DNA of 64,000 nucleotides. Origin: Deltaproteobacteria bacterium (GTDB taxonomy: Bacteria; Desulfobacterota; GWC2-55-46). The notes below the pieces were generated by a model. It was given only the letters and a program-made list of their open reading frames with translations. It did no database searches and had not been told where the DNA came from. Position numbers and translations under genes: made by a program. This document shows, piece after piece, positions 29,039 to 44,710 of the stretch (its first letter is position 1; every line of letters starts with the position of its first letter). The stretch spans positions 512,326 through 576,325 of the forward strand of contig JACOUO010000011.1 of assembly GCA_016177845.1 (NCBI GenBank), given 5' to 3'.

Positions 29039-30751
29039 TCAACCGCATGTTACCCTGTTTACCTCTTTGAGCGTCGTTTTTCCGTTTAAGGCATTATCAA
29101 TGGCCTTAAGCCTTAAAGAGTTCATGCTGCTTTCAGTCACTTTCCTTTTAAGATTCGATATATTATTGGCGGCTATAGCCTCCCTTATCTCTTCGTCCAG
29201 TTCAAGAAGCTCGATTATCGCCTTTCTCCCGCGGTAGCCTGTATTGCTGCACTTCCTGCAGCCCTTTCCCTCATAGAAGGTCTTACCTGAATACTCCTTT
29301 TTATCGAGCCCCGCTTCAATAAGCTCTGCCTCGGTTATCTTAAGAGGAGCCTTGCATTCATCACAGATAATCCTTATGAGCCTCTGTGAAAGTATGCAGT
29401 TAAGCGATGAGGCAAAATTATACGGGTCAACCCCCATATGTATGAACCTTCCGATGGCATCAAAGATATTATTGGCCCGTGCTGTCGTAAAGAGGGCATG
29501 GCCGCTTATGGCGGTATTTACTGCAAGCTGGGCTGTTTCAGGGTCGCGTATCTCCCCTACCATTATCTTATCAGGGTCATGCCTTAAAATGGAATTAAGC
29601 CCGCTTGCAAATGTAATCCCCTTCTTGTCATCCACATGTACCTGAACCGCGCCTTTAAGCTCATACTCCACAGGGTCTTCGATTGTAAGTATCTTATGCT
29701 CGCCGCTGTTTATCTCGGAAAGCGCTGCGTAAAGGGTTGTAGTCTTTCCGCTTCCGGCGGGCCCTGTCACCAAAGTCATTCCATACGGCTCCCAGACCTG
29801 CCTTCTGAATACAGCCAGTTCATCATCATTAAAGCCCAAAAGGTCCAGCCTGAACTCATTGGAATCCCCCGTAATATGACCTTTATCAAGTATCCTTACT
29901 ACGGCATCCTCTCCGTTTAACGCAGGGATGATAGATACCCTGAAGTCAATATTTTTATCCCTGAGCCTTAGTTTAAACCTTCCGTTCTGAGGTATTTTCT
30001 TCTCAGCTATGTCAAGCTCGCCTATCACCTTAAGTCTTGAGATTATCACCTGCTGAAATCTCTTCTCAACAGGCTCAACCATCCTGTGCAGCACTCCGTC
30101 TATCCTGTATTTGACTATAAGCCCGTCACGCGCTGATTCGAGGTGAATGTCGCTCGCCCTCTTTGAGACAGCATCATAGATTATCTTGTCAATGAGCCTT
30201 GCCGCAGGGCTTGAGCCTTCGGTTATCTTCTCAAGGGCGACTTCCTCCTGCTCTTCAGCCTCCCTCAAGACCTCCAGCCGCAGGTTCTCCGCAGTCTCTT
30301 CCATTCTTTCAAATCTGCTGCTTTGCACAAGCAGCCTTTCAATGGCGCTTTCAGGGGCGACTATAACTGTGCCTGGTGTCTGCCCCTTCTCCTCTATTAT
30401 CCTGCCGATGCTGTCGAGAGCCATTATGTTGGTGGGGTCTGAGGTTGCTATATAAGATACACCCTTCCTCTTTACGGGAACTACCCTTGATTTATGGAGC
30501 AGTTCAACCGGAATAAGCCTTAGCACCGCTTGATCGACCTCGGTTTCATCAGGCTTCATCACTTCCAGCCCGTATTGCTCGGCTATCCCTATGGCGAATT
30601 GGTTCTCATCTATAAAGCCGAGCCGCATGCAGGATTCTCCGAACCTGACTGAACTCTGCCTCGAATACTTCAGGGCCTCATATATCTGCTCAGGCTTGAT
30701 AAAATTTTTCTCAAGGAGAATATCGCCTAATTTATTCAGACCAAATATCAT
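29039..30751 (-). CDS. Type II secretion/type IV pilus assembly ATPase (GspE/PilB family)
   Basis: 570 aa. Has an N-terminal GSPII_E_N-like domain, Walker A GPAGSGKTT and a tetracysteine motif (CDECK...CRKCSNTG). Confidence 0.85.
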   Translation of the reverse strand: MIFGLNKLGDILLEKNFIKPEQIYEALKYSRQSSVRFGESCMRLGFIDENQFAIGIAEQYGLEVMKPDETEVDQAVLRLIPVELLHKSRVVPVKRKGVSYIATSDPTNIMALDSIGRIIEEKGQTPGTVIVAPESAIERLLVQSSRFERMEETAENLRLEVLREAEEQEEVALEKITEGSSPAARLIDKIIYDAVSKRASDIHLESARDGLIVKYRIDGVLHRMVEPVEKRFQQVIISRLKVIGELDIAEKKIPQNGRFKLRLRDKNIDFRVSIIPALNGEDAVVRILDKGHITGDSNEFRLDLLGFNDDELAVFRRQVWEPYGMTLVTGPAGSGKTTTLYAALSEINSGEHKILTIEDPVEYELKGAVQVHVDDKKGITFASGLNSILRHDPDKIMVGEIRDPETAQLAVNTAISGHALFTTARANNIFDAIGRFIHMGVDPYNFASSLNCILSQRLIRIICDECKAPLKITEAELIEAGLDKKEYSGKTFYEGKGCRKCSNTGYRGRKAIIELLELDEEIREAIAANNISNLKRKVTESSMNSLRLKAIDNALNGKTTLKEVNRVTCG

Positions 30752-31082: not shown

Positions 31083-32768
31083 CTAGAGTATTAATTCTTC
31101 AATTTCAATAGGTGTAAACTCTTTATCTTTTGGAAGTTTTCCAAGAATTTGATTAACAAATTTAAATATTGGCATCGATTTACTTCTTTCCATATTCTTT
31201 GCAAACTCAAATGCTGATAAAGGTTTTCCTTTACTTTGGTCGTATATATAATTATGAGCTTGTTCAAAATTCCTTATGTGTACATATCTATGCGACAGCC
31301 CCGAACTGAAATTGTTCGCCAATACAACTCTATCCCATATTGATTGATTTAATTCCCAAGCACTATTCTTTCGAGGCGAACCATCTTTATTAAAAATAGT
31401 TTTTCCAGTAGAATCTTCTAAATAACGATCATCGCCATCATGGATTATATGTTGGCGAATTCGAAAGTGAGTAAGAATTTCCTGAAAAAATGGAATATTA
31501 TTTTTCGACCCTGTATTAAGAACAAATATGTCGGCAGTTGGTTCAATTTCCTCTAATAGCTCACGGACTACAATCGCCTCTGTATCGCCTTCTACCAAAA
31601 TAACATCATCAGAGAAAAATATTTCACACAGATGAGGATTAAACCTATTATTCATTTGAACCATTTTCTTACGCTCATCATTTATACCAAAAAGATTATC
31701 TCCGGCTTGGTAAACTGATATCCTGCGCGCCTCTCTTTGCAATCTAGCTAATGATGTATGGGGTTTGGAAAGATCTATAAGAGCAGGACTATGGGAAGCA
31801 CAAAGCACTTGAAATGGAGATTTATAACAAAGATTATATAAAGAGTTTTTAAGAAGAGAAATTGTTTTTGGATGTAAATAAATTTCAGGTTCTTCAAATA
31901 AAATAATAAAATCTTTACGAGCATCCTCAATGGTTTCTTTTACTAAGCCAAGAAAATTGAACATAGCCTGCCTTATTACTCCGCTACCTTGAGACAGTAT
32001 ATCTTGCTCAATCTCATTAAAATGTCCGTCTTTAATTGTTACTGCATATTCTTTTTCAAGTGACTTTAACAAATCAAATTTATCTTCATCAACGGGTTTG
32101 ATTGACATTTCTAATTCTGGAAATATTTTTTTAAAATTTTCATTTGCTTGATCTTCTATTTTTTTCAGCTTATCTGAAGAAACCAAATTTTCTTTAAGTT
32201 CTTTATATCTTTGCTGAAAATTTTTGCAAAAATTTTCTTCTTCATCCGAAAGTTTTTTAAGAACTGTTTTCTTTATTGTCTCACTAACAAATTTTGATAG
32301 ATCCTCTAGATTGGGCATTGCTGGAATTACAATAGGAGTTGGTGCGTGTTTTTTAAAATGTGACTCAAATCCTCCAAATCCATCTTCCAAAAAACGATTT
32401 ATAGTTGGATCATATGTACTTTTTTGACCTTCCGAATCAGTATCAACCCAAACTTTATTAAATTTAATTAAACCAGTACTATTTACCCATTTATTTAAAC
32501 CTTTTTCTTCGAATTCTTTTTCATCTCCGGTTTCTTTTTGAAAAATTGCCTCAATTTCAATAGGATTTTTCTTTGAGTATCCATGAAAATCATTTAAAGT
32601 TGCTTTCTGTTTTGGTTTAACTAGGTATTCATATGCTGTAAGTACTGTAGATTTACAAGCATTATTTTTACCAATAAGAAAAATGATATCTGAATTTAAA
32701 AATGAAATGGATACAGAAGTTGCGCCAATTCCTCGAAAATTCTTTACAGCAATTTCAACAAGCCTCAT
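31083..32768 (-). CDS. OLD-family ATP-dependent nuclease (N-terminal ABC/AAA_15-type ATPase plus C-terminal Toprim); candidate anti-phage defence protein
   Basis: 561 aa. P-loop LIGKNNACKST near the N-terminus. C-terminal Toprim signatures are LVEGDTE (Glu) and IIHDGDD (DxD). GC content is about 33% against about 50% in flanking genes. It is adjacent to tRNA-Gly. Confidence 0.8.
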   Translation of the reverse strand: MRLVEIAVKNFRGIGATSVSISFLNSDIIFLIGKNNACKSTVLTAYEYLVKPKQKATLNDFHGYSKKNPIEIEAIFQKETGDEKEFEEKGLNKWVNSTGLIKFNKVWVDTDSEGQKSTYDPTINRFLEDGFGGFESHFKKHAPTPIVIPAMPNLEDLSKFVSETIKKTVLKKLSDEEENFCKNFQQRYKELKENLVSSDKLKKIEDQANENFKKIFPELEMSIKPVDEDKFDLLKSLEKEYAVTIKDGHFNEIEQDILSQGSGVIRQAMFNFLGLVKETIEDARKDFIILFEEPEIYLHPKTISLLKNSLYNLCYKSPFQVLCASHSPALIDLSKPHTSLARLQREARRISVYQAGDNLFGINDERKKMVQMNNRFNPHLCEIFFSDDVILVEGDTEAIVVRELLEEIEPTADIFVLNTGSKNNIPFFQEILTHFRIRQHIIHDGDDRYLEDSTGKTIFNKDGSPRKNSAWELNQSIWDRVVLANNFSSGLSHRYVHIRNFEQAHNYIYDQSKGKPLSAFEFAKNMERSKSMPIFKFVNQILGKLPKDKEFTPIEIEELIL

Positions 32769-32899
32769 AAGATTTGCCCTTCTCTAATTTAATTATAAGT
32801 AAAAAATGAATGAAAATATTAATAACATCTTGAAGACAAAAAACAAAGTTAAAATTTATGAGCGACTAAGAATTTTCATAATTCCTTTATCCCCCTGCC

Positions 32900-32928
32900 T
32901 TGCGCGGTTATATGCCCTCTGATATACT
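32900..32928 (+). promoter_or_regulatory. Putative sigma-70 promoter for the 8-gene plus-strand operon
   Basis: TTGCGC-(17 nt)-TATACT, about 45 nt upstream of the aldehyde dehydrogenase ATG. A GGAGG ribosome-binding site precedes the ATG. Confidence 0.35.
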
Positions 32929-32973
32929 TTTTGGGGTATTCATATCAAAAAAATACAATCACAGGAGGGGTTT

Positions 32974-34464
32974 ATGGCGGTCATTAAGAACCTGATAAAC
33001 GGCAAATGGGTGGAGTCCGCATCAGGCAAGACCCTTAATAGCATCAACCCCGCGAATATAGATGAGGTTGTCGGAGTAGTGCCTGCCTCTTCCCGGCCTG
33101 ATGTGGATAAGGCGGTCGAGGCCGCACGGAACGCCTTTGAGAAATGGCGGCTAACCCCAGCCCCCAAAAGAGGCGAAATCCTCTTCAGGGCGGCTGAACT
33201 CATATCAAAGAACAAGGAAGAGCTTGGAAGGCTCGTTACAAGAGAGATGGGCAAGGTACTGCCCGAAGGGCTTGGCGATGTGCAGGAAGCAATCGACATG
33301 GCCTACTACATGGCAGGCGAAGGCAGGAGGCTTTCAGGTGAGACCGTACCTTCCGAACTGCCCTTTAAAGACTGCAAATCTGTCCGTGTTCCTATCGGCG
33401 TATTCGCCCTTATCACCCCCTGGAACTTCCCCACGGCAATTCCCGCGTGGAAGCTCTTTCCAGCCCTCATCAGCGGCAATACCGTAGTTTTCAAGCCTTC
33501 AAGCTATACCCCTGTAGCAGCAACAAGGCTTGTAGAACTGATAGTAGAGGCAGGCATCCCCGAAGGCGTATTGAACCTTATCCACGGGGCAGGAGAAGAG
33601 ATAGGAGAGTACCTTGCCACCCATCCGGGAATAGACGGGGTATCTTTCACAGGCTCAACAGCCGTGGGAGAAAAACTGGCCAAACTCTGCGGAGGGCTTG
33701 ATAAAGAGATATCATGCGAGATGGGCGGCAAAAACCCGATAATCGTCATGGAAGACGCAAAGCTTGACCTTGCCGTTGAGGGCGCAATCTGGGGAGGGTT
33801 TGGCACTACAGGGCAGAGGTGCACAGCCGCAAGCAGGCTCATAGTGCATGAAAAAATACATGATAAATTCCTTGAGATGTTCATCTCAGCCGCAAAGGGC
33901 TTAAAGCTTGGTGACGGGCTTAAGAGCGATACAAAGGTCGGCCCTGTGATAAATGAATCACAGATGAAGAAAGTCCTTGGCTATATCGAAATAGGCAAAA
34001 AAGAAGGCGCAAAGCTCACCCTCGGAGGAAGCGCCCGAACAGAAGGCGGATTAAAGAAAGGCTACTTTATCGAGCCTACCATCTTTACCGAGGTAAAGCC
34101 AAAGATGAGGGTAGCGCAGGAAGAGATATTCGGCCCGGTTGTCTCCATCATAAAGGCAAGAGACATATCAGATGCGATAAATATTGCCAATGGTATCCCG
34201 TACGGGCTCTCATCATCCATATATGCCCAGGATGTGAACTATACCGCTATCGCCGAAAGGGACCTTGACGCAGGCATCGTCTACATCAACGCCCCGACCA
34301 TAGGCGCAGAGATACAGCTCCCCTTCGGAGGGACGAAAAAGAGCGGGCTTGGGCGGAAAGAGGCAGGAGGAAGGGGCGGAGCCCTTGATATGTTCACAAA
34401 ATGGAAGGTAATCTACAGGGACTACAGCGGAAGGCTTCAAAAAGCGCAGATAGATAAAGAGTGA
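32974..34464 (+). CDS. NAD(P)-dependent aldehyde dehydrogenase (ALDH superfamily; semialdehyde or P5C dehydrogenase-like)
   Basis: 496 aa. Contains the catalytic Cys in GQRCTA, the Glu in EMGGKNP and a Rossmann motif GSTAVG. Confidence 0.9.
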   Translation: MAVIKNLINGKWVESASGKTLNSINPANIDEVVGVVPASSRPDVDKAVEAARNAFEKWRLTPAPKRGEILFRAAELISKNKEELGRLVTREMGKVLPEGLGDVQEAIDMAYYMAGEGRRLSGETVPSELPFKDCKSVRVPIGVFALITPWNFPTAIPAWKLFPALISGNTVVFKPSSYTPVAATRLVELIVEAGIPEGVLNLIHGAGEEIGEYLATHPGIDGVSFTGSTAVGEKLAKLCGGLDKEISCEMGGKNPIIVMEDAKLDLAVEGAIWGGFGTTGQRCTAASRLIVHEKIHDKFLEMFISAAKGLKLGDGLKSDTKVGPVINESQMKKVLGYIEIGKKEGAKLTLGGSARTEGGLKKGYFIEPTIFTEVKPKMRVAQEEIFGPVVSIIKARDISDAINIANGIPYGLSSSIYAQDVNYTAIAERDLDAGIVYINAPTIGAEIQLPFGGTKKSGLGRKEAGGRGGALDMFTKWKVIYRDYSGRLQKAQIDKE

Positions 34465-34575
34465 GCCATTATGAAATTCAAGGGGATTTTTCAGAAAACT
34501 TAAAACTTAAGCTGTAACTTTAGGGCTCTTTTTGTTATAATCCGCCTCAATCATATTTTCGCAAAGGAGGGTATT

Positions 34576-35082
34576 ATGGACCCAGTGCATTTTTCAGGGA
34601 AAGAGGTCCTTGAGATGGCCGTAAAGATCGAAGAGAACGGGCTTGTATTTTATACCGAAGCAAGCAAGGAAACACGGTCAATAGAGATAAAAGCTCTCTT
34701 CAAAATGCTTGCCGAAGAAGAAGGCCAGCATATAAAAGTATTTAAAAGACTTAGAGACCTTCTGGATGACGAAGAGTCAGCTACAGAAGCTTTTGACCCT
34801 TACTTAGCCCAGGCTTCAGACTACCTTAAGGCAATGGCGGATACAGAGGTATTCCCTGACCCTAAAAAAGAAGGCAAACGCCTCGCGACAACTGTATACG
34901 ATGAGAACGATGCGCTTGATGTGGCAATCGGCCTGGAAAAGGACTCATTGCTTTTCTATTACGAGCTCCAGAGGATGATAAACCAGAAGGATAAGCAAAT
35001 AGTCGAAGAGCTTATCAATCAGGAAAAGGAACACTTAAAGAAGCTCACCGGGCTGCAGCAGAAGATGTTCGGTTCAAATTAA
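34576..35082 (+). CDS. Ferritin-like diiron protein (rubrerythrin-like domain without a rubredoxin domain)
   Basis: 168 aa with two E-x(n)-EExxH-type motifs (EENGLVFYTEA...EEEGQHIK and EKDSLLFYYEL...QEKEHLKK), indicating a four-helix-bundle diiron site. Confidence 0.6.
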   Translation: MDPVHFSGKEVLEMAVKIEENGLVFYTEASKETRSIEIKALFKMLAEEEGQHIKVFKRLRDLLDDEESATEAFDPYLAQASDYLKAMADTEVFPDPKKEGKRLATTVYDENDALDVAIGLEKDSLLFYYELQRMINQKDKQIVEELINQEKEHLKKLTGLQQKMFGSN

Positions 35083-35108
35083 GAGAGAGATGAAAGGAGT
35101 CTTTTGGT

Positions 35109-35360
35109 ATGACGACACAGTATGTAAAGACTTATTCCTGCCCTACATGTTCAGGACTTGCAAGCGGAAGGGGGCACCTTTGCCACCCGAGCACGGAGAA
35201 CCTTCCATTCACCTGCGAATTCTGCGGTAAATCAGTCAACGACCCGAGGCATGTCTGCCCGACAATGGTGGACAAGCTTGAATATATCTGCAAGAAATGC
35301 GGCAGGCTCTCAATCTATGACACGCAGTTATGCGAGCCAGCTCCCATTGACGAGGAATAA
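35109..35360 (+). CDS. Small Cys-rich metal-binding protein (three CxxCG motifs; rubredoxin/zinc-ribbon-like)
   Basis: 83 aa: CPTCSG, CEFCGK and CKKCGR, plus HLCH, HVCP and LCEP. It is 26 nt downstream of the ferritin-like gene and is preceded by a GGAG ribosome-binding site. Confidence 0.5.
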   Translation: MTTQYVKTYSCPTCSGLASGRGHLCHPSTENLPFTCEFCGKSVNDPRHVCPTMVDKLEYICKKCGRLSIYDTQLCEPAPIDEE

Positions 35361-35429
35361 CGCCTCCCGGTGCTGATGGTTTTCTGGTCGGAGATAAAAA
35401 AAACCTTTGTTGCCGCAACCGGAAACTGA

Positions 35430-36704
35430 ATGAATGACGACATTATAAATAGAGCCCGAAAATATATTGCCCCTGCCCTTGTCTTCCACACTGAAATCGT
35501 TGCTAAAAGTTCAAACGGTATCTATGTGGAAGACATAGGCGGCAAGGTATATATGGACTTTTCCGCTGGGCTTGCCACTGCCAATGCAGGCCATTGCCCG
35601 TCTGAAGTAACCGAGGCGGCCAAGGCACAGATGGATAAGCTCATCCATTCAGGCTGCATTTTTTATTATGAATCTGAAGTAAACCTTGCAGAAAAGCTCG
35701 CCCGCATAACACCGGAAGGCATTGAAATGTTCTTTTTCTCAAACAGCGGGGCCGAAGCAGTCGAAGGGGCGGTAAAGCTTGCGAGATATGCAACAGGTAG
35801 ACAAGGCATCATAGCATTTACAGGCAGCTTCCACGGCAGGACAATGGGCGCATTAAGCCTTACTGCCTCAAGCTCAAAGTACAGGAAAAATTATCATTCG
35901 CTTCTGCCAAGCGTCTATCATGCTCCCTACCCTTACTGCTACAGGTGCCATATGGGGCAGAGCAGGATAGATTGCAAGACAGAATGCTTTGATTATCTTG
36001 AAAGGATACTCAGGTACCAGATATCTCCGCAGGAGGTAGCCTGCATTATTATTGAACCTGTTCTCGGCGAAGGCGGTTATATTGTACCTCCCGCTGATTT
36101 TATGGTAAAACTTAGAGACCTTTGCACAAAAGAAGGCATATTATTGATAGCTGATGAGGTGCAGAGCGGATTCGGCAGGACAGGAAAATGGTTCGCCATA
36201 GAACACTGCGGCATTGCCCCTGATATTATGACAATGGCAAAGGGGATAGCCTCAGGCTTTCCCTTAAGCGCGGTAGGCGCGCGTAAAGATATAATGTCCA
36301 AGTGGGCTCCGGGCGCGCACGGCACTACATTCGGGGGAAACCCTGTCTCATGCGCCGCAGCCTGCGCAACGATTGACAAGATAGAAAAAGAGTCCCTGCT
36401 TGATAACGCGATTAATGTAGGGCTGTACGCAATCAACCGCCTGCGTACTATTGCGGAGAACCACACCGCGATCGGGGATGTGCGCGGCCTTGGCCTGATG
36501 ATAGGGGTTGAGCTCATTAAACCGGACGGCAGTCCCGATAAGGAATTACTGGAACGAGTCATGAAAAGATGTTTAGAAAATGGGCTTATAATAATTGAGT
36601 GCGGGATTGACAAGAACATTGCCCGCATTATGCCTCCGCTGACCACAACCGAGTCTGAGATGAAAAAGGCCCTCGATATTTTTGAGGAGGCGCTTGTTGA
36701 TTAG
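35430..36704 (+). CDS. Class-III PLP-dependent aminotransferase (GABA/ornithine/acetylornithine aminotransferase-like)
   Basis: 424 aa. PLP-lysine region DIMTMAKGIASGFPLSAVG, plus GSFHGRT and DEVQSGFGRTG motifs. Confidence 0.85.
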   Translation: MNDDIINRARKYIAPALVFHTEIVAKSSNGIYVEDIGGKVYMDFSAGLATANAGHCPSEVTEAAKAQMDKLIHSGCIFYYESEVNLAEKLARITPEGIEMFFFSNSGAEAVEGAVKLARYATGRQGIIAFTGSFHGRTMGALSLTASSSKYRKNYHSLLPSVYHAPYPYCYRCHMGQSRIDCKTECFDYLERILRYQISPQEVACIIIEPVLGEGGYIVPPADFMVKLRDLCTKEGILLIADEVQSGFGRTGKWFAIEHCGIAPDIMTMAKGIASGFPLSAVGARKDIMSKWAPGAHGTTFGGNPVSCAAACATIDKIEKESLLDNAINVGLYAINRLRTIAENHTAIGDVRGLGLMIGVELIKPDGSPDKELLERVMKRCLENGLIIIECGIDKNIARIMPPLTTTESEMKKALDIFEEALVD

Positions 36705-38877
36705 GTTTCAAAAGGCTTTTGCCGTCCTGATATCCATCGCAGTCCTGATTATCTTTTCCATCCAGCTTGATTATCTCTTCGCAGGAAGGATTCCCCAGTC
36801 AGAGAGCCTGGTCGCTGTCGCGAGGTTTTTCAGCCTCGTTGGCAACGGTCTATTTCTAATTTCTGTATGCGCCATAATTTTCGGGATAGGATACCGGCGC
36901 AGGAATATGGAAATAAAAGAGGCAGGTATAAGAGGAATACTCTCCGTCATTGTCGGAGGGGTTGCCGTACATATTCTCAAGGCAGCCTTTGAACGCCCCC
37001 GCATCGAGCACGGAAGCGATGCCATATTCCACTTCCTTCAGAACCCGTCTTTTTTCGACCTTACAGGAAAGTATAATTCTTTTCCGTCAGGCCACACGAC
37101 AGTAACTTTTGCGGTTGCTTATGTATTATCAAAGAAGTTCCCACGCCTGATGCCCCTCTTTTATCTTATAGCGTTATTGGTAGCGGCTTCCCGTGTCTAT
37201 CTCGGCTCGCATTACCCCACTGACACCCTGATAGGCGCTTTCCTCGGAATCTCGGTAGGGTATCTCCTTATGACAAGGGAGCGGATAGCAGAGAAATGGC
37301 TCATAGCAGGTCTTGCCGTTCTTATCATATCCGTTTCATTTTTCAAGACCGGCGGCTTCCTTCTCTTTGATGTTGATGAAGCGGTCTTTTCAGAGGCGTC
37401 AAGGGAGATGGTAGAGACAGGCGACCTTATAACGCCCACATACAATTACGAACCGAGATATGATAAGCCCATTCTCATATACTGGTTCATGTCCGCGGCG
37501 TTTACCTTCTTCGGCATCACCGAATTCGCCGCAAGGTTTACCTCAGGGCTATTCGGCACGCTCCTCGTGCTGATGACATTTTTCTTCATAAGGCGCAACA
37601 AAGGCAACGGCGCAGCTCTATTCGTCTCGCTCGCGCTCCTGTTAAACCTTGAATACTTCGTCTATACGCACTCCGCAGTGACGGATATGACCCTTGCCTT
37701 TTTCATCACGGCATCCGTTTACTCGTTCTATCTGGCTATACGGGAAAATAAGCGGTTATGGTATATGTCGTTCTGGGCAGCTTCAGCCTTGGCCGTGCTT
37801 ACAAAGGGCGTTATCGGCATACTCTTCCCTGTTGTAATAGGGTTTTTATTCCTGTTCCTTTCCAAAAAGCTCTCAAGGGCAAAGGACTTTTTAAAACCGT
37901 CGTACATCGCTCAGTTCCTTTTGATATCAGTGCCCTGGTTTGCGGCTGAATTCTATGTGAACGGCTGGGAGTTCTTCAACGCATTTATCATAAAGCACCA
38001 CTTCCAGAGATATTCGGAAGTCATCTCAAGCCACAGCGGCCCGTTCTACTACTACATCATCGTCCTATTGATAGGCTTTTTCCCGTGGGTCTCAATGCTC
38101 CCCACAGGCATATACAAAGGCTACAAGGAAAAAAGCTCAAAAGACTCTGACGGCCTGTATCTCCTGACATCCATATGGTTTGTCTTTGTGCTCATATTCT
38201 TCTCAATCGCAAAGACAAAACTGCCTAACTACATATTCCCTCTCTATCCTCCCGCGGCGATAATGGCAGGTCTTGTCATAGCGGAGATAGCCGGCAAGAG
38301 CCCGGAGAGGAAAAAGAACGGAATATACATAATGATGATACTTGCTGGCATCATTGCCAATGCCATCTTCGTATTGCCGTTCATTGAGATGAAGGCTCAG
38401 ATACCGTTTAACCCCATCTTCTTCTTTGAGCTCGGCCTGATATTCTTCATTATCGCTGTGCTTGCGCTTGTAGCCATTTTCAGGCCAATGCCCGCCATGC
38501 TCGGCATCGCGGGCATGTCAGCCGTACTTATTATTTTCCTTAGATTGTACGCGCTCCCCCCTGTAAATATCTTTTTCCAGAAGACGCTCTATACTTATTC
38601 CACCTACGCCCGCAACCTGGGCAAGGACGGGGTCTTGGCGACTTATGAGATAAACAAACCTTCCATTGCGTTCTACTCACAGCGAAAGGTCATAAAAATA
38701 GAGCAGAGGGATGCCTGCAACATAAAAGAGTTCGCCAAAAAACAAAAATTCCTCCTTATCACAAGCCCGTCAAGATACAACGAGGTCAAAGACTACGAAG
38801 GGCTTAAAGTGATAGACTCTACAAAAGAATACATGCTCCTTGGCACCGAAGGCCTGCCTCCATTCCAGGCCCGCTGA
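36682..38877 (+). CDS. Fusion membrane protein: N-terminal PAP2 phosphatase plus C-terminal ArnT/PMT-like GT-C glycosyltransferase
   Basis: 731 aa. PAP2 motifs are KAAFERPR (KxxxxxxRP), FPSGHT (PSGH) and SRVYLGSHYPTD (SRxxxxxHxxxD). The downstream region has the ArnT-like DEAVFSEASREM and YDKPILIYW motifs and more than 10 transmembrane helices. It overlaps the preceding gene by 23 nt. Confidence 0.75.
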   Translation: MRRRLLIRFQKAFAVLISIAVLIIFSIQLDYLFAGRIPQSESLVAVARFFSLVGNGLFLISVCAIIFGIGYRRRNMEIKEAGIRGILSVIVGGVAVHILKAAFERPRIEHGSDAIFHFLQNPSFFDLTGKYNSFPSGHTTVTFAVAYVLSKKFPRLMPLFYLIALLVAASRVYLGSHYPTDTLIGAFLGISVGYLLMTRERIAEKWLIAGLAVLIISVSFFKTGGFLLFDVDEAVFSEASREMVETGDLITPTYNYEPRYDKPILIYWFMSAAFTFFGITEFAARFTSGLFGTLLVLMTFFFIRRNKGNGAALFVSLALLLNLEYFVYTHSAVTDMTLAFFITASVYSFYLAIRENKRLWYMSFWAASALAVLTKGVIGILFPVVIGFLFLFLSKKLSRAKDFLKPSYIAQFLLISVPWFAAEFYVNGWEFFNAFIIKHHFQRYSEVISSHSGPFYYYIIVLLIGFFPWVSMLPTGIYKGYKEKSSKDSDGLYLLTSIWFVFVLIFFSIAKTKLPNYIFPLYPPAAIMAGLVIAEIAGKSPERKKNGIYIMMILAGIIANAIFVLPFIEMKAQIPFNPIFFFELGLIFFIIAVLALVAIFRPMPAMLGIAGMSAVLIIFLRLYALPPVNIFFQKTLYTYSTYARNLGKDGVLATYEINKPSIAFYSQRKVIKIEQRDACNIKEFAKKQKFLLITSPSRYNEVKDYEGLKVIDSTKEYMLLGTEGLPPFQAR

Positions 38878-38948
38878 CTTGATTTTTCCGTCTTACCTGT
38901 ATATCCTTTAAAAGTCAGGGCAGAGTTGATAGCCCTCAGCTAAAACCT

Positions 38949-40262
38949 ATGAAGAAAAAAGCGATCATAATGGGTGCGGCAGGACGGGATTTTCACAACT
39001 TCAACACCTATTTCAGGCACAACGAAGATTACGAAATCACCGCTTTCACCGCAACCCAGATACCATTCATAAGTAACAGGACATATCCTCCAAGCCTTTC
39101 AGGCCCGCTTTATCCTGACGGCATCCCCATACACCCCGAAGAAGAATTAGCTGGACTTATAAAATCACAGAACATTGACGAAGTAATATTTTCATACAGC
39201 GATGTTTCGCATGATTATGTCATGCACAGGGCGTCTCTTGTGACCGCGCTCGGGGCCGACTTCGTCCTCCTTGGGTTTGAAAAAACAATGCTCAAATCAA
39301 GTAAGCCTGTCATATCGGTCTGCGCGGTAAGAACAGGCTGCGGCAAGAGCGGCGTTACAAGATACATTGGAAAGCTATTGAAAGAGCTTGGCAGAAAGCC
39401 TGTTGCCATAAGACACCCAATGCCTTACGGTGACCTTGAAAAACAGGCTGTACAACGCTTCTCCAAACCCCAGGATTTAACAGAGGCAAACTGCACGATT
39501 GAAGAGATGGAAGAATATGAGCCCCTTATCAATGCGGGCATTACCGTATATGCGGGAGTGGATTACGAAAAGATATTGAGAAGGGCTGAACAAGAGGCAG
39601 AGATAATAATATGGGACGGCGGCAATAATGACCTGCCCTTTATAAGGCCTGACCTCTCACTTGTGGTAGCTGACCCGTTAAGGACAGGCCATGAGCTTTC
39701 ATACTATCACGGAGAAGCAAATTTAAGAAGAGCGGATTGCGTAATCATAAATAAGGCAAACTCCGCAAAGTGTGATGATATTGAACAGCTGAAAAAGAAT
39801 ATAAGGTCGGTCAACACAACCGCTCAAATAATACTTACAGCCTCTTCGGTTGATGTTGAGGAGCCGATAAAAGGCAAAAGGGTACTCGTCATAGAGGACG
39901 GCCCTACCCTCACCCACGGCGGTATGGATTACGGCGCAGGCATCATAGCCGCAAGGCTCTACGGGGCAGAGCCCGTTGATGCGAGCCCTTATGCGGTAGG
40001 CACTATCAAAGATACGCTTTCGCGTTATCCCCATATAAAAAACCTTCTTCCTGCAATGGGCTACTCGCCAACACAAATGCGCGAGCTTGAAGAGAGTATA
40101 AACAGGACTCCCTGCGACATGGTCCTTATTGCCACTCCAATCGACCTTGCCAAACTTATCAACATCAAAAAACCTTTTACAAGGGTGCATTACGGGATAG
40201 CTGAGATTGAAACCCCAGGGCTTAAAGGCGTTATAACACAATTCCTTAAGAGGACAGCGTGA
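38949..40262 (+). CDS. P-loop protein of the COG2403/cyclic-2,3-diphosphoglycerate-synthetase-like family (tentative)
   Basis: 437 aa with a Walker-A-like TGCGKSGVT. The family assignment is from memory only. It overlaps the following gene by 4 nt. Confidence 0.45.
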   Translation: MKKKAIIMGAAGRDFHNFNTYFRHNEDYEITAFTATQIPFISNRTYPPSLSGPLYPDGIPIHPEEELAGLIKSQNIDEVIFSYSDVSHDYVMHRASLVTALGADFVLLGFEKTMLKSSKPVISVCAVRTGCGKSGVTRYIGKLLKELGRKPVAIRHPMPYGDLEKQAVQRFSKPQDLTEANCTIEEMEEYEPLINAGITVYAGVDYEKILRRAEQEAEIIIWDGGNNDLPFIRPDLSLVVADPLRTGHELSYYHGEANLRRADCVIINKANSAKCDDIEQLKKNIRSVNTTAQIILTASSVDVEEPIKGKRVLVIEDGPTLTHGGMDYGAGIIAARLYGAEPVDASPYAVGTIKDTLSRYPHIKNLLPAMGYSPTQMRELEESINRTPCDMVLIATPIDLAKLINIKKPFTRVHYGIAEIETPGLKGVITQFLKRTA

Positions 40263-41107
40263 GGAGACTGCTCGCCTTTTTCGCTAAAAGGTATATAGCA
40301 GGCATAGAGATAAAAAATGCCATTGAGGCCGCGCGCAGGCTCAACAGCCTCGGCATACTTGCTACAATAGATAACCTTGGCGAAAATGTATCCGATATCC
40401 ATAAGGCAAAACTTTCGGTACGGGAGTATCACAGGCTGCTTGAAGAGATAGACAAGGCAAAGGTCAAATCAACAGTATCGCTTAAACTGACCCACCTTGG
40501 GCTTGATATCTCAGAAGACCTTGCAAGGGCAAATGCCGAGTCAATACTCAGAAAGGCAATGCAGTACGGCAATTCAGTCTGCCTCGATATGGAGGGCTCA
40601 GGATATACCAAAAGGACAATCGATATATGCCTCTCATTAAGGAAAGATTATCCTAATGTGAGCATCGCCATACAGAGCTATCTTAAAAGAAGCGCAGCTG
40701 ACATAACGCTCCTCAATAAAAATAGTATTAGCGTAAGGCTTGTCAAAGGCGCTTACAAAGAACCGCCTGAAATAGCATTTGCGGATAAGAAAGATGTGGA
40801 TGCGAATTATGAGGCTCTGATGAAAGAACTTCTCCTGCACGGAAACAGGCCTGCCATAGCAACGCATGATGAGAGGCTGATAAATGAGGCTATCAGGTTT
40901 GCCAATGACAACGCAATCGGAAAAGAAAGCTTCGAGTTCCAGATGCTCCTTGGGATAAAAAGAGGGCTGCAGAAAAGGCTTGCTGACGAAAGTTTTAAGA
41001 TGCGGGTATATGTGCCTTACGGGGCTGAATGGCTCCCTTATACCCTTCGAAGGTTTAGGGAGCGCAAGGAAAATATCTATTTTGTATTAAAGAATATCTT
41101 TGACTAA
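40259..41107 (+). CDS. Monofunctional proline dehydrogenase (PutA PRODH-domain family)
   Basis: 282 aa with a TIM-barrel PRODH-like sequence (LSLKLTHLGL, VCLDMEGSGYT, VRLVKGAY, IATHDERLI). Its start overlaps the stop of the upstream gene. Confidence 0.7.
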   Translation: MRRLLAFFAKRYIAGIEIKNAIEAARRLNSLGILATIDNLGENVSDIHKAKLSVREYHRLLEEIDKAKVKSTVSLKLTHLGLDISEDLARANAESILRKAMQYGNSVCLDMEGSGYTKRTIDICLSLRKDYPNVSIAIQSYLKRSAADITLLNKNSISVRLVKGAYKEPPEIAFADKKDVDANYEALMKELLLHGNRPAIATHDERLINEAIRFANDNAIGKESFEFQMLLGIKRGLQKRLADESFKMRVYVPYGAEWLPYTLRRFRERKENIYFVLKNIFD

Positions 41108-41118
41108 AACAAAAAAAA

Positions 41119-41628
41119 TTATTTCTTGTCAGTCGGGTAAGGAAGTGCGCACTCGGACGGGCTGCCTTTTATCTTTTCAATGGTATGGCATAGCGCAGGC
41201 ATTACTACCGCAAGGTTCTCCCTTACTGCCCTCGGGCTTCCCGGAAGATTTATGATAAGGGATTCGCCCCTGATTCCGCACACAGCCCTTGATATCATGG
41301 CGTTCGGTGTTTTCTTAAGGCTCTCCGCCCTCATCGCCTCTGACATGCCCGGCAGTTCCCTCTCTATCACTGCCTTTGTAGCCTCAGGCGTTACATCCCT
41401 TGGGGTTACGCCTGTGCCGCCTGTAGTAAGTATCAGGTCGAGCTTCTTAATATCGGCATACTCGATGAGCTTTTCCCTTATTACAGAGGTCTCATCAGGG
41501 ATTACCTCATAGGCCTTGACCTGAGCGGGAAGCTCAATTATCATGCGCTCGATTTCCTTGCCGCTTAAATCCTCCCTCTCGCCCCTTGAGCCCTTATCGC
41601 TCATTGTAAGTATGCCTACTGTTATCAT
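41119..41628 (-). CDS. mog: Molybdopterin adenylyltransferase/MoaB-MogA family protein
   Basis: 169 aa containing MSDKGSRGEREDLSGK and the GGTGVTPRDVTPEA motif (GGTG). Confidence 0.8.
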   Translation of the reverse strand: MITVGILTMSDKGSRGEREDLSGKEIERMIIELPAQVKAYEVIPDETSVIREKLIEYADIKKLDLILTTGGTGVTPRDVTPEATKAVIERELPGMSEAMRAESLKKTPNAMISRAVCGIRGESLIINLPGSPRAVRENLAVVMPALCHTIEKIKGSPSECALPYPTDKK

Positions 41629-41649
41629 CTTATTCTTTCCCGTTTGGTT

Positions 41650-42081
41650 TTATGGTGTCTCGGAGACCCAGACATCCCCTGTCTTTGTAGTCTCCCGTTT
41701 CCAGATAGGCGTAGTGCGTTTAAGCTCTGTTATCGCCCATTCACAGGCCATGAAAGCATCATTACGGTGGGCTGAAGCAGCCACAATCAAAACGATATCC
41801 TCTCCGACATCGATATTGCCTATCCTGTGTACAATGCCCATCTCAATGATATTGAAGTTCTTAAGCGCCCTCTCTCGGATGTCTTTAAGCTTGTTCTCAG
41901 CCATCCCGGGATAGTGCTCAAAATCAAGCCCTGATATCTCAAAGCCTTTTGAGTTGTCCCTTCCGGTACCGAGGAATGTCACTACCGCGCCTATGCCCTT
42001 CGAGGCCTTCTTTACATTTTCCATCTCAGCTTCTATTGAAAAATTCTCTCTTTGTATTCTTACAAGTTCCGGCATTTTCAT
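41650..42081 (-). CDS. moaE: Molybdopterin synthase catalytic subunit MoaE
   Basis: 143 aa with MoaE-like conserved regions. It is adjacent to moaD. Confidence 0.8.
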   Translation of the reverse strand: MKMPELVRIQRENFSIEAEMENVKKASKGIGAVVTFLGTGRDNSKGFEISGLDFEHYPGMAENKLKDIRERALKNFNIIEMGIVHRIGNIDVGEDIVLIVAASAHRNDAFMACEWAITELKRTTPIWKRETTKTGDVWVSETP

Positions 42082-42376: not shown

Positions 42377-44710
42377 TCAGTTGCTCAATTCCGCGCCAAA
42401 GTTTTTATTCAGGTCGAGCTTGACCCTGCTTGACGCCTTAGAGAAAAGCTCTGCGAATGAGTCCCCTTCATTCGGGAATGAAGCATAGCCGTAAAGTATA
42501 TCGGCCTTGCCTTCTCCGAAGGCCTTGCGGAAGTCCTCGTCATTCGCTATCACCTCGGTTATCGAGCCGAGGAGCCTTGAAATTTTTTCATTCGTATCAA
42601 GGAACAGGAAGCCGAAGGTCTCTTCATTAAGCCTTACCACGACATCAAAGTTCCTTGTCCTTTTCCTGATGTAGCCTATGAGTTTTGTCTCGAACTCAGC
42701 CTTCCTGTTCCTGAAGGCATCCTTGAGCCCTGCTATCCTTACGGTAGCAAGCACAAGGCTCTTATCCATTCTGCGCGCCCTGTTAAGCTCCTGCTCAACC
42801 CTCTGCTCAAAGAGATGGAGCGGCGTCTGCCCTGTCTCAAGCTTCCTCTCAGGCTTCTGCTCTGCCCTGGAGTTAAGCATTATGACATTGGCAAGCGCCT
42901 TTTCGGCATAGACCGCGAACCTTGTGAATGTATCGGCGTCAGCCCTGGAAAAAGCGCATGGGTAAACGGTAGCTTCATTCGATTTATTGAATAATGTAAG
43001 TACGGCTATGATGTTGTTCTCAACCCTTAGCGGCAGCGAAAGCACTGACCTGATATAAGGGCTTGCCTCTTCGGAAAATTCCCTCACGACAGCCGTCTTT
43101 TTCCTCAAGACCTCCATTACGGTCTCTTTCTCAATGGGGAGGAAATATTCCCTTATCTTTTTATCGTCAAGCCCGTAGGTAGACACTGTCTGAAAGCGTT
43201 TTGAGCCTGCCTGCTGTATCCTTAAGAGAGAGCCTTCGGCCCCGAGTATCGCGGCAGGGGTGGTTGAAATGATGGTAACAAGCCTTTTGGGGTCTTTTAT
43301 CGATATCATCTCAAGGCCTGCTTCATCTACAGCGAACATCTTCCTTGACCTGAGCTTTTCTTTTTCATGCTTATTCTGCTTATAGACGCTCTCAGCTATC
43401 AAGGTCCTTATGTCTTTGAGGAATGACTCATGGTAAACGGATAGCCCGTGTGAAGAGACCACATGGCCGTTAAGCGTGCCGACAAGCGTATTATTTGATA
43501 CCATCGGCAGTGTAAGATATACCCTCTTGGTCGCGCCGTGCTCAGTCCTGTCAACAAGGAACACATCATCCATTGAATCCATTGTCGCGCCTTCCATGCC
43601 CTCGCCTGCCCTGAGGCTCAGCAGCCCAAGACCCTTGGCGTCCTTTATGCTTGAAGCCTGCAGGAAGAGCCTGTTCCTGTCGTCATCATAGATGTATATG
43701 AAACAGGTCAGCCCCGGCACTATTTCGGAAAGCCTTCTGGCTACGACATTAAGCCTCTTATCAAGCGGAGAGGCGGAGGACATGACAGTATCCACCTCTT
43801 TCCAGAATGTGAACTTGGCAGCATCGACCCTCAGGCGTTCGTATTCATTCGACCGCTGGATAACCTCGGCTGCCAGTGAGGCCAGACTTGTGAGGAAGTT
43901 CAGGTCGTCATTTGTAAACACATGGGCTGATTCGCTTGAGCTTACATTTATTACGCCGATGACCTCCCCGTTTACAAGCAGGGGCACGCACATGGAGTTC
44001 TTGACATCGCTCCTGTCCATGGGGCGGGTGAACTCATCTCCCTTTGCCTTGCCTGATATGAGCATGGGCTTGCCTTCTTTGGCAACTTTACCGGAGATGC
44101 CGTCGCCAAGCGGGACCCTTATCTTTCTTATGACCTCTTCATCCATGCCCTTTGCTATCTCAACCCTCAGCGTGCCTTCTTCGGCTGACAGGAGCATGAT
44201 GGAGCCGCGCTCCGCGTGGGTGTATTCGGTAGCAAGTTTTAAAATTACGGAAAGGAGCTCTTTACGGTCTATTGTGAGGCGCACCGCATCGACTATCTCG
44301 CGGAAGGATGAAAGGAGCGTAAACTGCTCATGCCCTTTATCCACGGCGCCTTCTTTGGGGGCTGAGGCCCTTACTCCCCAGATAAGCCTTGTGCTCAGAG
44401 GGCCTAACTTTTCTATGTCCCTGAACTCAGGGCTTTCGAGGAATTTCTCTGTAGCCTGGTCCTGAAGCGCGTTTATGATTATATCAAGGCCCTGCTGTTT
44501 TTTAATTTCGTTAAGGTCGTGGATGATTTTGATATCGAGGTTTTTGGCAAGGCGGTAGCCGAGCTCATTGAGCTTAAAGAGCATGGCATCCCTGTTCGTA
44601 TCGGCAATCATGCAGATACGGCTCTTCCCGTCATTGAGGAGTATGGGCAGGAGCTTGAGCCCTTCCTTGTTGGCGCCGATGATGGCTATGTTCTTAAGGT
44701 CGTTTGGCAT
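42377..44710 (-). CDS. Multi-GAF-domain signalling protein with a C-terminal degenerate GGDEF-like domain
   Basis: 777 aa containing several GAF-like modules. The C-terminal RLNEETFGF replaces the R[YH]GGEEF motif, so it is probably catalytically inactive. Confidence 0.55.
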   Translation of the reverse strand: MPNDLKNIAIIGANKEGLKLLPILLNDGKSRICMIADTNRDAMLFKLNELGYRLAKNLDIKIIHDLNEIKKQQGLDIIINALQDQATEKFLESPEFRDIEKLGPLSTRLIWGVRASAPKEGAVDKGHEQFTLLSSFREIVDAVRLTIDRKELLSVILKLATEYTHAERGSIMLLSAEEGTLRVEIAKGMDEEVIRKIRVPLGDGISGKVAKEGKPMLISGKAKGDEFTRPMDRSDVKNSMCVPLLVNGEVIGVINVSSSESAHVFTNDDLNFLTSLASLAAEVIQRSNEYERLRVDAAKFTFWKEVDTVMSSASPLDKRLNVVARRLSEIVPGLTCFIYIYDDDRNRLFLQASSIKDAKGLGLLSLRAGEGMEGATMDSMDDVFLVDRTEHGATKRVYLTLPMVSNNTLVGTLNGHVVSSHGLSVYHESFLKDIRTLIAESVYKQNKHEKEKLRSRKMFAVDEAGLEMISIKDPKRLVTIISTTPAAILGAEGSLLRIQQAGSKRFQTVSTYGLDDKKIREYFLPIEKETVMEVLRKKTAVVREFSEEASPYIRSVLSLPLRVENNIIAVLTLFNKSNEATVYPCAFSRADADTFTRFAVYAEKALANVIMLNSRAEQKPERKLETGQTPLHLFEQRVEQELNRARRMDKSLVLATVRIAGLKDAFRNRKAEFETKLIGYIRKRTRNFDVVVRLNEETFGFLFLDTNEKISRLLGSITEVIANDEDFRKAFGEGKADILYGYASFPNEGDSFAELFSKASSRVKLDLNKNFGAELSN

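Follow-up and report, generated by a model that had tools for sequence, protein, structure and literature searches.

The window analysed here is a stretch of 64,000 nucleotides (nt) from the genome of a Deltaproteobacteria bacterium (GenBank assembly GCA_016177845.1, contig JACOUO010000011.1, positions 512,326 to 576,325, forward strand), and it contains a gene, at 36682-38877, whose product joins a PAP2-family lipid-phosphate phosphatase to a GT-C glycosyltransferase of the ArnT/PMT type. PAP2 lipid phosphatases work at the outer face of the inner membrane. ArnT is the lipid A 4-amino-4-deoxy-L-arabinose transferase, and GT-C enzymes of its type take their sugar from undecaprenyl phosphate and release undecaprenyl phosphate. 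The features of the gene, all on the plus strand and given in window coordinates and in amino acids (aa) of the whole frame, are as follows.

36682..38877 (+): whole fused open reading frame, a single frame of 731 codons from the first TTG, with zero internal stops
36684..36690 (+): Shine-Dalgarno sequence GAGGAGG, read in the sequence, 6 nt 5' of TTG 36697 and within the end of the upstream aminotransferase gene
36682..37281 (+): PAP2 lipid-phosphate phosphatase domain, aa 1-200, six helices, N-terminus predicted cytoplasmic
36979..37002 (+): PAP2 motif C1, K100-x6-R107 followed by I108 (not P), from sequence and alignment
37084..37095 (+): PAP2 motif C2, P135-S-G-H138, invariant in the alignment
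37189..37224 (+): PAP2 motif C3, S170-R171-x5-H177-x3-D181, with R171, H177 and D181 invariant in the alignment
37273..37284 (+): basic turn T-R-E-R, aa 198-201, from the last PAP2 helix to the first GT-C helix, predicted cytoplasmic
37285..38619 (+): ArnT-like GT-C transmembrane domain, aa 202-646, from hidden Markov model (HMM), PDB sequence and Foldseek matches
37369..37380 (+): first periplasmic loop D230-V-D232-E233, in which D232 corresponds by alignment to ArnT catalytic D55
37462..37470 (+): D261-K262-P263, aligned to ArnT E84-K85
37684..37686 (+): D335, aligned to ArnT D158, invariant
38008..38010 (+): R443, aligned to ArnT R270, invariant
38230..38232 (+): Y517, aligned to ArnT Y345, invariant
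38629..38874 (+): C-terminal alpha/beta domain, aa 650-731, counterpart of the ArnT periplasmic domain by model and Foldseek

Domains, active sites and fold of the fused protein

The initial annotation described a PAP2 phosphatase and an ArnT/PMT-like GT-C transferase in one 731-aa protein, and this is borne out: the frame is uninterrupted and both domains score above their Pfam cut-offs, PAP2 occupying aa ~1-200 and the ArnT/PMT-type GT-C aa ~202-731. The true start is probably TTG 36697, with a product of 726 aa, because GAGGAGG stands at 36684-36690 and the protein's database copy is 726 aa long; with this start, the gene shares 8 nt with the end of the aminotransferase gene upstream, TAG stop included.

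Comparison with Pfam, proposed along with the initial annotation for PF01569 plus PF02366/PF13231, returned all three families above their gathering scores: PAP2 (PF01569) at aa 86-198 (E 6.8e-21, 74.8 bits vs a cut-off of 27.2), PMT (PF02366) at aa 209-431 (E 1.6e-17, 64.3 bits vs 22.7), and PMT_2 (PF13231) at aa 261-406 (E 5.1e-14, 53.2 bits vs 26.1). The best NCBIfam model for the C-terminal two thirds is ArnT (NF009784, GT83). When sequences of the PDB were searched, the best match of the GT-C half was Cupriavidus metallidurans ArnT (5EZM, E 7.7e-42, aa 203-564) and that of the PAP2 half was Aquifex aeolicus LpxE (6EBU, E 3.8e-8, 35.5 bits, aa 49-196).

Conservation was read from an alignment of 18 relatives with 45-64% identity to the window protein. 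PAP2 residues K100, P135-S-G-H138, R171, H177 and D181 are invariant in it, and R107 is kept in at least 90%. The motif set KX6RP, PSGH and SRX5HX3D can be recognised, with I108 replacing the proline of the first, while most relatives carry ERPRP; PSGH and SRx5Hx3D therefore stand as first reported, and the KxxxxxxRP given with them is to be amended to K100-x6-R107-I108. The GT-C hallmarks reported from the same reading are legible in the sequence as D230-V-D232-E233 and D261-K262-P263-I-L-I-Y267-W268, the acidic motif following helix 202-219 in the first extracytoplasmic loop and being invariant. Residues were mapped from a HMMER alignment to C. metallidurans ArnT (PDB chain numbering offset 3), and the equivalences D232=D55, D261/K262=E84/K85, D335=D158, R443=R270 and Y517=Y345 are all invariant on the fusion side. 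These ArnT residues (C. metallidurans numbering) are catalytic or carrier-phosphate-binding residues, D55 being catalytic and K85 binding the carrier-lipid phosphate. Identity to the window protein averages 50% in PAP2, 60.5% over the membrane core of the GT-C and 44% over the C-terminal part; from the first two values, neither half is decaying. With catalytic sites intact and conserved in the alignment, both halves look active.

An AlphaFold2 model built from the relatives' alignment (mean pLDDT 82, pTM 0.83) runs from six PAP2 helices through the turn T-R-E-R to GT-C helix 202-219 and the D230-x-D232-E233 loop. Its top Foldseek match is ArnT 5F15 (E 7.5e-18, TM-score 0.81 normalised on ArnT, 565 aligned columns), and on this match the ArnT fold is complete with its C-terminal periplasmic domain; next come oligosaccharyltransferases (TM-score ~0.4), and PAP2 phosphatases appear as partial matches. 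Short loops hold 15 K/R where they are predicted cytoplasmic and 1 where they are predicted periplasmic. On the strength of helix order and these counts, all three PAP2 motifs and the GT-C acidic loop are predicted to lie on the periplasmic side, in agreement with the earlier expectation that the PAP2 active site faces the periplasm.

Distribution, unfused pairs and an unlinked cassette

A protein search (5.8 billion proteins) returned 878 relatives, and 119 of the best 120 have both domains at 45-64% identity, the exception being a partial protein. Loci were scanned with one genome per species (167 relatives, 80 loci), and a single tblastn segment runs across both halves in ~46 of the 48 loci L001-L048, the rest being cut by contig ends. 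The gene is present in 36 of 61 genomes sampled from the window's class, with one open frame over both halves in 29 and a fused gene cut by contig ends in 7 further genomes. A sequencing frameshift, the first of two refutations envisaged in the initial annotation, is ruled out by the same fused frame in ~46 independent assemblies and in those class genomes; as for the second, lack of a GT-C HMM match, such a match is present. Among 301 genomes sampled from the phylum, only the order and class of the window gave full-length fused matches. In a representative library (50% identity), at least 20 clusters have the order PAP2 then GT-C, down to 29% identity, and public databases already carry the architecture under automatic names such as 'phosphatase PAP2 family protein' and 'glycosyltransferase family 39 protein'. 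A full-text literature search of a limited collection found no paper describing or testing a PAP2-GT-C fusion.

Elsewhere the two enzymes are encoded by adjacent genes. At 22 of 30 Nitrospirota or Thermodesulfovibrionales loci, an orthologous GT-C gene (37-41% identical to the fused GT-C) stands before a PAP2 gene that is separate and lies in a different frame, the two overlapping by ~22 nt; this order, GT-C then PAP2, is the opposite of that in the fusion. Around these split pairs the neighbours vary (H+-pyrophosphatase, RF1/PrmC, Lgt/LspA, two-component systems), and PAP2 is the sole constant partner. The nearest unfused GT-C relatives in the window's phylum have a PAP2 gene after them (G106, G200) or before them (G205). 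Obligate gene pairing or fusion of this GT-C with PAP2 thus extends across phyla. Other unfused GT-C relatives have an ArnC-like GT2 gene (G048, G135) or a flippase-like gene (G026) after them, and the GT2 of G048 is 57% identical to the window genome's own GT2. At one Thermodesulfovibrionales locus (L060:14880-18092), where the GT-C/PAP2 pair sits between lspA and lgt, two more PMT_2-type GT-C paralogues, divergently transcribed, lie 5 kb downstream of the pair.

The reverse-order fusion is represented by one cluster, known as a protein only (P0165, 733 aa), with GT-C at aa 12-526 and then PAP2 at aa 612-723. Two hydrophobic segments separate its soluble GT-C C-terminal domain from the K motif, and in the window protein three precede the K motif; with one helix fewer, the PAP2 site would stay periplasmic after a periplasmic domain. 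This consistent topology, as read from the sequence, argues for P0165 being a real second fusion. In a tree of the GT-C half, the window's fused clade (16 rows, support 99) lies apart from a fused Acidobacteriota/Binatia pair (support 100), and the tree requires two changes of fused state; a single clade of all fused proteins is not rejected by the approximately unbiased test (p 0.357). For more than one origin of the fusion, P0165 is a better argument than the tree.

The source genome (3.0 Mb, 100% complete) has LpxK and therefore makes 4'-phosphorylated lipid A. It also has BacA/UppP, four PAP2 genes in all (three besides the fusion), and 13 PMT_2-type GT-C matches, 8 of them above the Pfam cut-off. 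Thirteen such matches in 3.0 Mb amount to an unusually large periplasmic glycosylation repertoire, and several of these genes have, within ~1-10 kb, short GT2 genes of the type that makes polyprenyl-phosphate sugars. A second, unfused set of genes was found in the same genome.

G000 C10:180398-184417 (-): unfused cassette on another contig, among heptosyltransferase/GmhB-like genes

The cassette consists of a PAP2 protein (189 aa), a GT-C (505 aa), an ArnC-like GT2 (315 aa) and a flippase-like membrane protein (TIGR00374, 322 aa), the genes for the last two lying at C10:180398-182310. Its GT2 scores 263.8 bits on the ArnC model, below the cut-off of 529, and the heptosyltransferase and GmhB labels in the surrounding lipopolysaccharide (LPS) core cluster were read from N-terminal sequences only. 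The fusion GT-C and the cassette GT-C are, by sequence comparison, of different subfamilies and may serve different positions. The cassette is likely a second lipid A or core modification module, and it is the probable source of the donor for the fusion.

Fusion and cassette co-vary. Of the 61 class genomes, 46 have an ArnC-like GT2 orthologue and 36 the fusion, and the 2x2 table of fusion against GT2 (31/5/14/11) gives a Fisher p of 0.016, kinship being ignored. Within one genus (g202), the fusion, the cassette GT-C and the GT2 all occur in G328, where 1.8 Mb lie between fusion and cassette, and G313 (a one-contig genome), G321 and G338 are without all three. Joint gain or loss of two unlinked loci fits a shared pathway, most simply a common lipid-linked sugar donor, and carriers and non-carriers in one genus provide a ready natural comparison.

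Proposed function

In rhizobia, LpxE and LpxF strip the 1 and 4' phosphates from lipid A, and RgtF and RgtD then attach galacturonic acid (PMC9393093); in Oligotropha, rgtE, lpxE and rgtF have consecutive locus tags (PMC7663294). The Aquifex LpxE, Aq_1706, is a proven lipid A 1-phosphatase, and lipid A of A. pyrophilus carries galacturonic acid in place of phosphate (PMC6581854). In these systems of Rhizobium, Mesorhizobium, Oligotropha and Aquifex (LpxE with RgtF, LpxF with RgtD, and RgtE), phosphate is replaced by galacturonic acid, and the likeness to the fusion is that a periplasmic PAP2 enzyme acts first and is followed by an ArnT-like GT-C whose donor is made by an ArnC-like GT2, and the genes can cluster. 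They differ in that the enzymes are separate there and form one polypeptide here. Gene context and co-variation agree with a putative RgtF/RgtD-like partnership of lipid A phosphatase and RgtE/ArnC-like synthase.

ArnT itself (GT83; 5EZM, 5F15) shares with the fusion its fold, 23% identity, the residue counterparts listed above and the C-terminal periplasmic domain; on the other hand, its E84 is Asp in the fusion, it adds its sugar onto the phosphate, and it has no phosphatase domain. Xanthomonas has an arnT-lpxE-eptA cluster, in which an ArnT-like gene precedes an LpxE-like gene as in the split Nitrospirota pairs, and Helicobacter pylori has an lpxE-eptA operon, in which the position dephosphorylated first is the one that the transferase modifies afterwards (PMC8306577). 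In both, however, the genes are separate, and EptA is not a GT-C. ArnT of Pseudomonas aeruginosa is a physical binding partner of the PAP2 protein LpxT, which modulates lipid A modification (PMC13142001); that association is non-covalent and antagonistic, LpxT being a phosphotransferase that adds phosphate.

We therefore read the fusion as a variant of a known two-enzyme pathway and not as a new kind of system. Its product is probably a bifunctional inner-membrane enzyme of lipid A remodelling, with both active sites periplasmic and an undecaprenyl-phosphate sugar as donor. The N-terminal six-helix PAP2 domain would hydrolyse a lipid A phosphate, at position 1 or 4', and the C-terminal ArnT-like GT-C would move one sugar from undecaprenyl-phosphate-sugar onto lipid A, most likely onto the hydroxyl just freed by the phosphatase, following the logic of LpxE then RgtF or LpxF then RgtD in rhizobia and Aquifex. 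The donor would probably be built by the ArnC-like GT2 of the LPS core cluster and flipped by the adjoining flippase-like protein, and the four-residue cytoplasmic turn would put both active sites side by side in the outer leaflet. We infer lipid A as the acceptor, as well as the position attacked, the identity of the sugar and the use of one position for both reactions.

Of the two functions offered in the initial annotation, 'coupled dephosphorylation and glycosylation of lipid A' has more support, as a predicted activity, because the two halves match ArnT and Aquifex LpxE best, because orthologous genes form an obligate neighbouring pair elsewhere, because related GT-C genes adjoin ArnC-like GT2 or flippase-like genes, and because the fusion co-varies with the LPS-cluster cassette. 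Several results weigh against it. The fused protein is outside both curated families, reaching neither the ArnT equivalog NF009784 (174.6 bits vs a cut-off of 567) nor the LpxE equivalog NF007159 (17.3 bits vs 177), and its PAP2 half scores higher on models of the undecaprenyl-diphosphatases SepP (NF047884, 51 bits vs a cut-off of 250) and YbjG (NF008813, 35.7 bits vs 229), likewise below cut-off, than on LpxE. The fusion occurs in five genomes that have no ArnC-like orthologue at E<=1e-40, and the GT2 occurs in 14 that have no fusion. No blastp match at E<=1e-3 was found between the GT-C half of the fusion and the cassette GT-C. The fusion's own neighbours are amino-acid catabolic genes and not LPS genes. 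LpxE enzymes, moreover, also hydrolyse undecaprenyl diphosphate (C55-PP) (PMC6581854).

The last point, together with the higher SepP and YbjG-type scores, suits the other function first offered, 'carrier-lipid recycling', in which PAP2 would be a C55-PP phosphatase regenerating undecaprenyl phosphate beside a transferase that uses lipid-linked sugar, and lipid A phosphate would be left untouched. Fusions of PAP2 with the DedA undecaprenyl-phosphate flippase in other bacteria have been interpreted as joining successive steps in the recycling of the carrier (bioRxiv 10.1101/2022.02.03.479048); in them too PAP2 is fused to an enzyme of a neighbouring step in an envelope lipid pathway, the difference being that the partner is a transporter and the substrate the carrier lipid. 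We nevertheless regard this explanation as unlikely and the weaker of the two. ArnT/PMT-type GT-C enzymes are generally known to use polyprenyl-monophosphate sugars and to release the monophosphate, so that no diphosphate arises, and the counterparts of the monophosphate-binding ArnT residues K85, R270 and Y345 are conserved in the fusion. The source genome already has BacA/UppP and three more PAP2 genes, and the fusion is dispensable and patchy within one genus, unlike a housekeeping step.

It is similarly improbable that the transferase acts on an acceptor different from lipid A, for example a polysaccharide, a protein of the periplasm or membrane, or another lipid derived from phospholipid, with PAP2 preparing or regulating that substrate. 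Membership of the GT-C half in the Pfam PMT/PMT_2 families is compatible with such an acceptor, as are the position of the fusion gene outside the LPS cluster and the ArnT equivalog score below cut-off, and the acceptors of 13 PMT_2-type GT-C genes in one genome must be diverse. Against this, among solved structures ArnT is much the nearest in sequence and fold alike, with a TM-score of only ~0.4 for the folds that follow, and the fusion co-varies with a cassette placed among heptosyltransferase genes; no protein- or polysaccharide-directed GT-C is known to need a PAP2 partner, and the literature search returned none. Very unlikely, finally, is maturation of the donor, in which PAP2 would dephosphorylate a phosphorylated polyprenyl-phosphate sugar and so supply the fused GT-C, in the manner of mycobacterial Rv3807c, which acts on decaprenyl-phosphoribose 5-phosphate, the lipid-linked donor of GT-C arabinosyltransferases (PMC11127046): related GT-C genes adjoin ArnC-like GT2 genes, whose donors come from nucleotide sugars without a phosphorylated intermediate, a UbiA-type synthase dependent on phosphoribosyl pyrophosphate is absent beside all loci inspected, and the predicted periplasmic PAP2 site would require prior flipping of the phosphorylated donor.

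Fused, split and reverse forms occur in uncultured lineages labelled Thermodesulfobacteriota, and in Nitrospirota, Acidobacteriota and Binatia. Building on the reading as a lipid A remodelling enzyme, we tentatively suggest that these forms could belong to one widespread system in which a sugar takes the place of a lipid A phosphate at that very position, with the dephosphorylated lipid A passed directly between the sites; that the anaerobes concerned might have partly or fully phosphate-free lipid A; and that the fusion might have arisen repeatedly, its coupling being selected. The phosphates of lipid A govern outer-membrane charge, cation bridging, resistance to cationic peptides and innate immune recognition, and their exchange for sugar has been documented in no more than a few cultured groups (rhizobia, Caulobacter, Aquifex), where the enzymes are separate in every case. 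If the proposal is true, lipid A engineering would gain a compact tool in this single-chain phosphatase-transferase, and the enzyme would lend itself naturally to testing how substrate is handed over from one membrane active site to another. It would also be a hint that lipid A poor in phosphate is common among uncultured bacteria of sediment and groundwater.

Neighbouring genes and further observations

The genes directly beside the fusion are the following.

35430..36704 (+): class-III aminotransferase, upstream, its stop overlapping the fusion start; a positional neighbour
38949..40262 (+): 437-aa protein, downstream, distantly like cyclic 2,3-diphosphoglycerate synthetase (cDPGS; PDB 9sxb, E 6.5e-11, aa 210-320)

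They belong to a flanking string of aldehyde dehydrogenase, rubrerythrin-like, zinc-ribbon, aminotransferase, cDPGS-like and proline dehydrogenase genes, and this proline/ornithine operon order around the fusion is kept in 29-37 of 48 clade loci. The 437-aa cDPGS-like protein, which matches zero Pfam families above threshold, is kept between an aminotransferase of the ornithine/gamma-aminobutyrate type and proline dehydrogenase across the clade. In G313, G321 and G222, which do not have the fusion, the operon is intact and the aminotransferase gene is followed directly by the cDPGS-like gene. A functional link between the fusion and the amino-acid operon is ruled out by these three genomes; the fusion is a present-or-absent insert, and its association with the operon is therefore positional, and perhaps co-regulatory. 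The operon position is uninformative on the substrate of the fusion. A promoter and terminator scan of 32600-41700 gave counts at chance level.

On the minus strand at 31083-32768 is a gene for a 561-aa AAA_15 ATPase with an OLD-like TOPRIM domain, weakly similar to the retron Eco8 effector. It has zero counterparts in the 80 related loci and is probably an accessory anti-phage defence gene adjoining the conserved operon. Beyond it, at 29039-30751 (minus strand), lies a gene for a PilB/GspE-type secretion ATPase with an N-terminal MshEN cyclic-di-GMP-binding domain. On the other side of the operon, a gene for a 777-aa GAF and GGDEF protein (42377-44710, minus strand) is syntenic with the operon in 17 related loci, and in those 17 loci it is accompanied by a MoaB-like gene, located here at 41119-41628 (minus strand).

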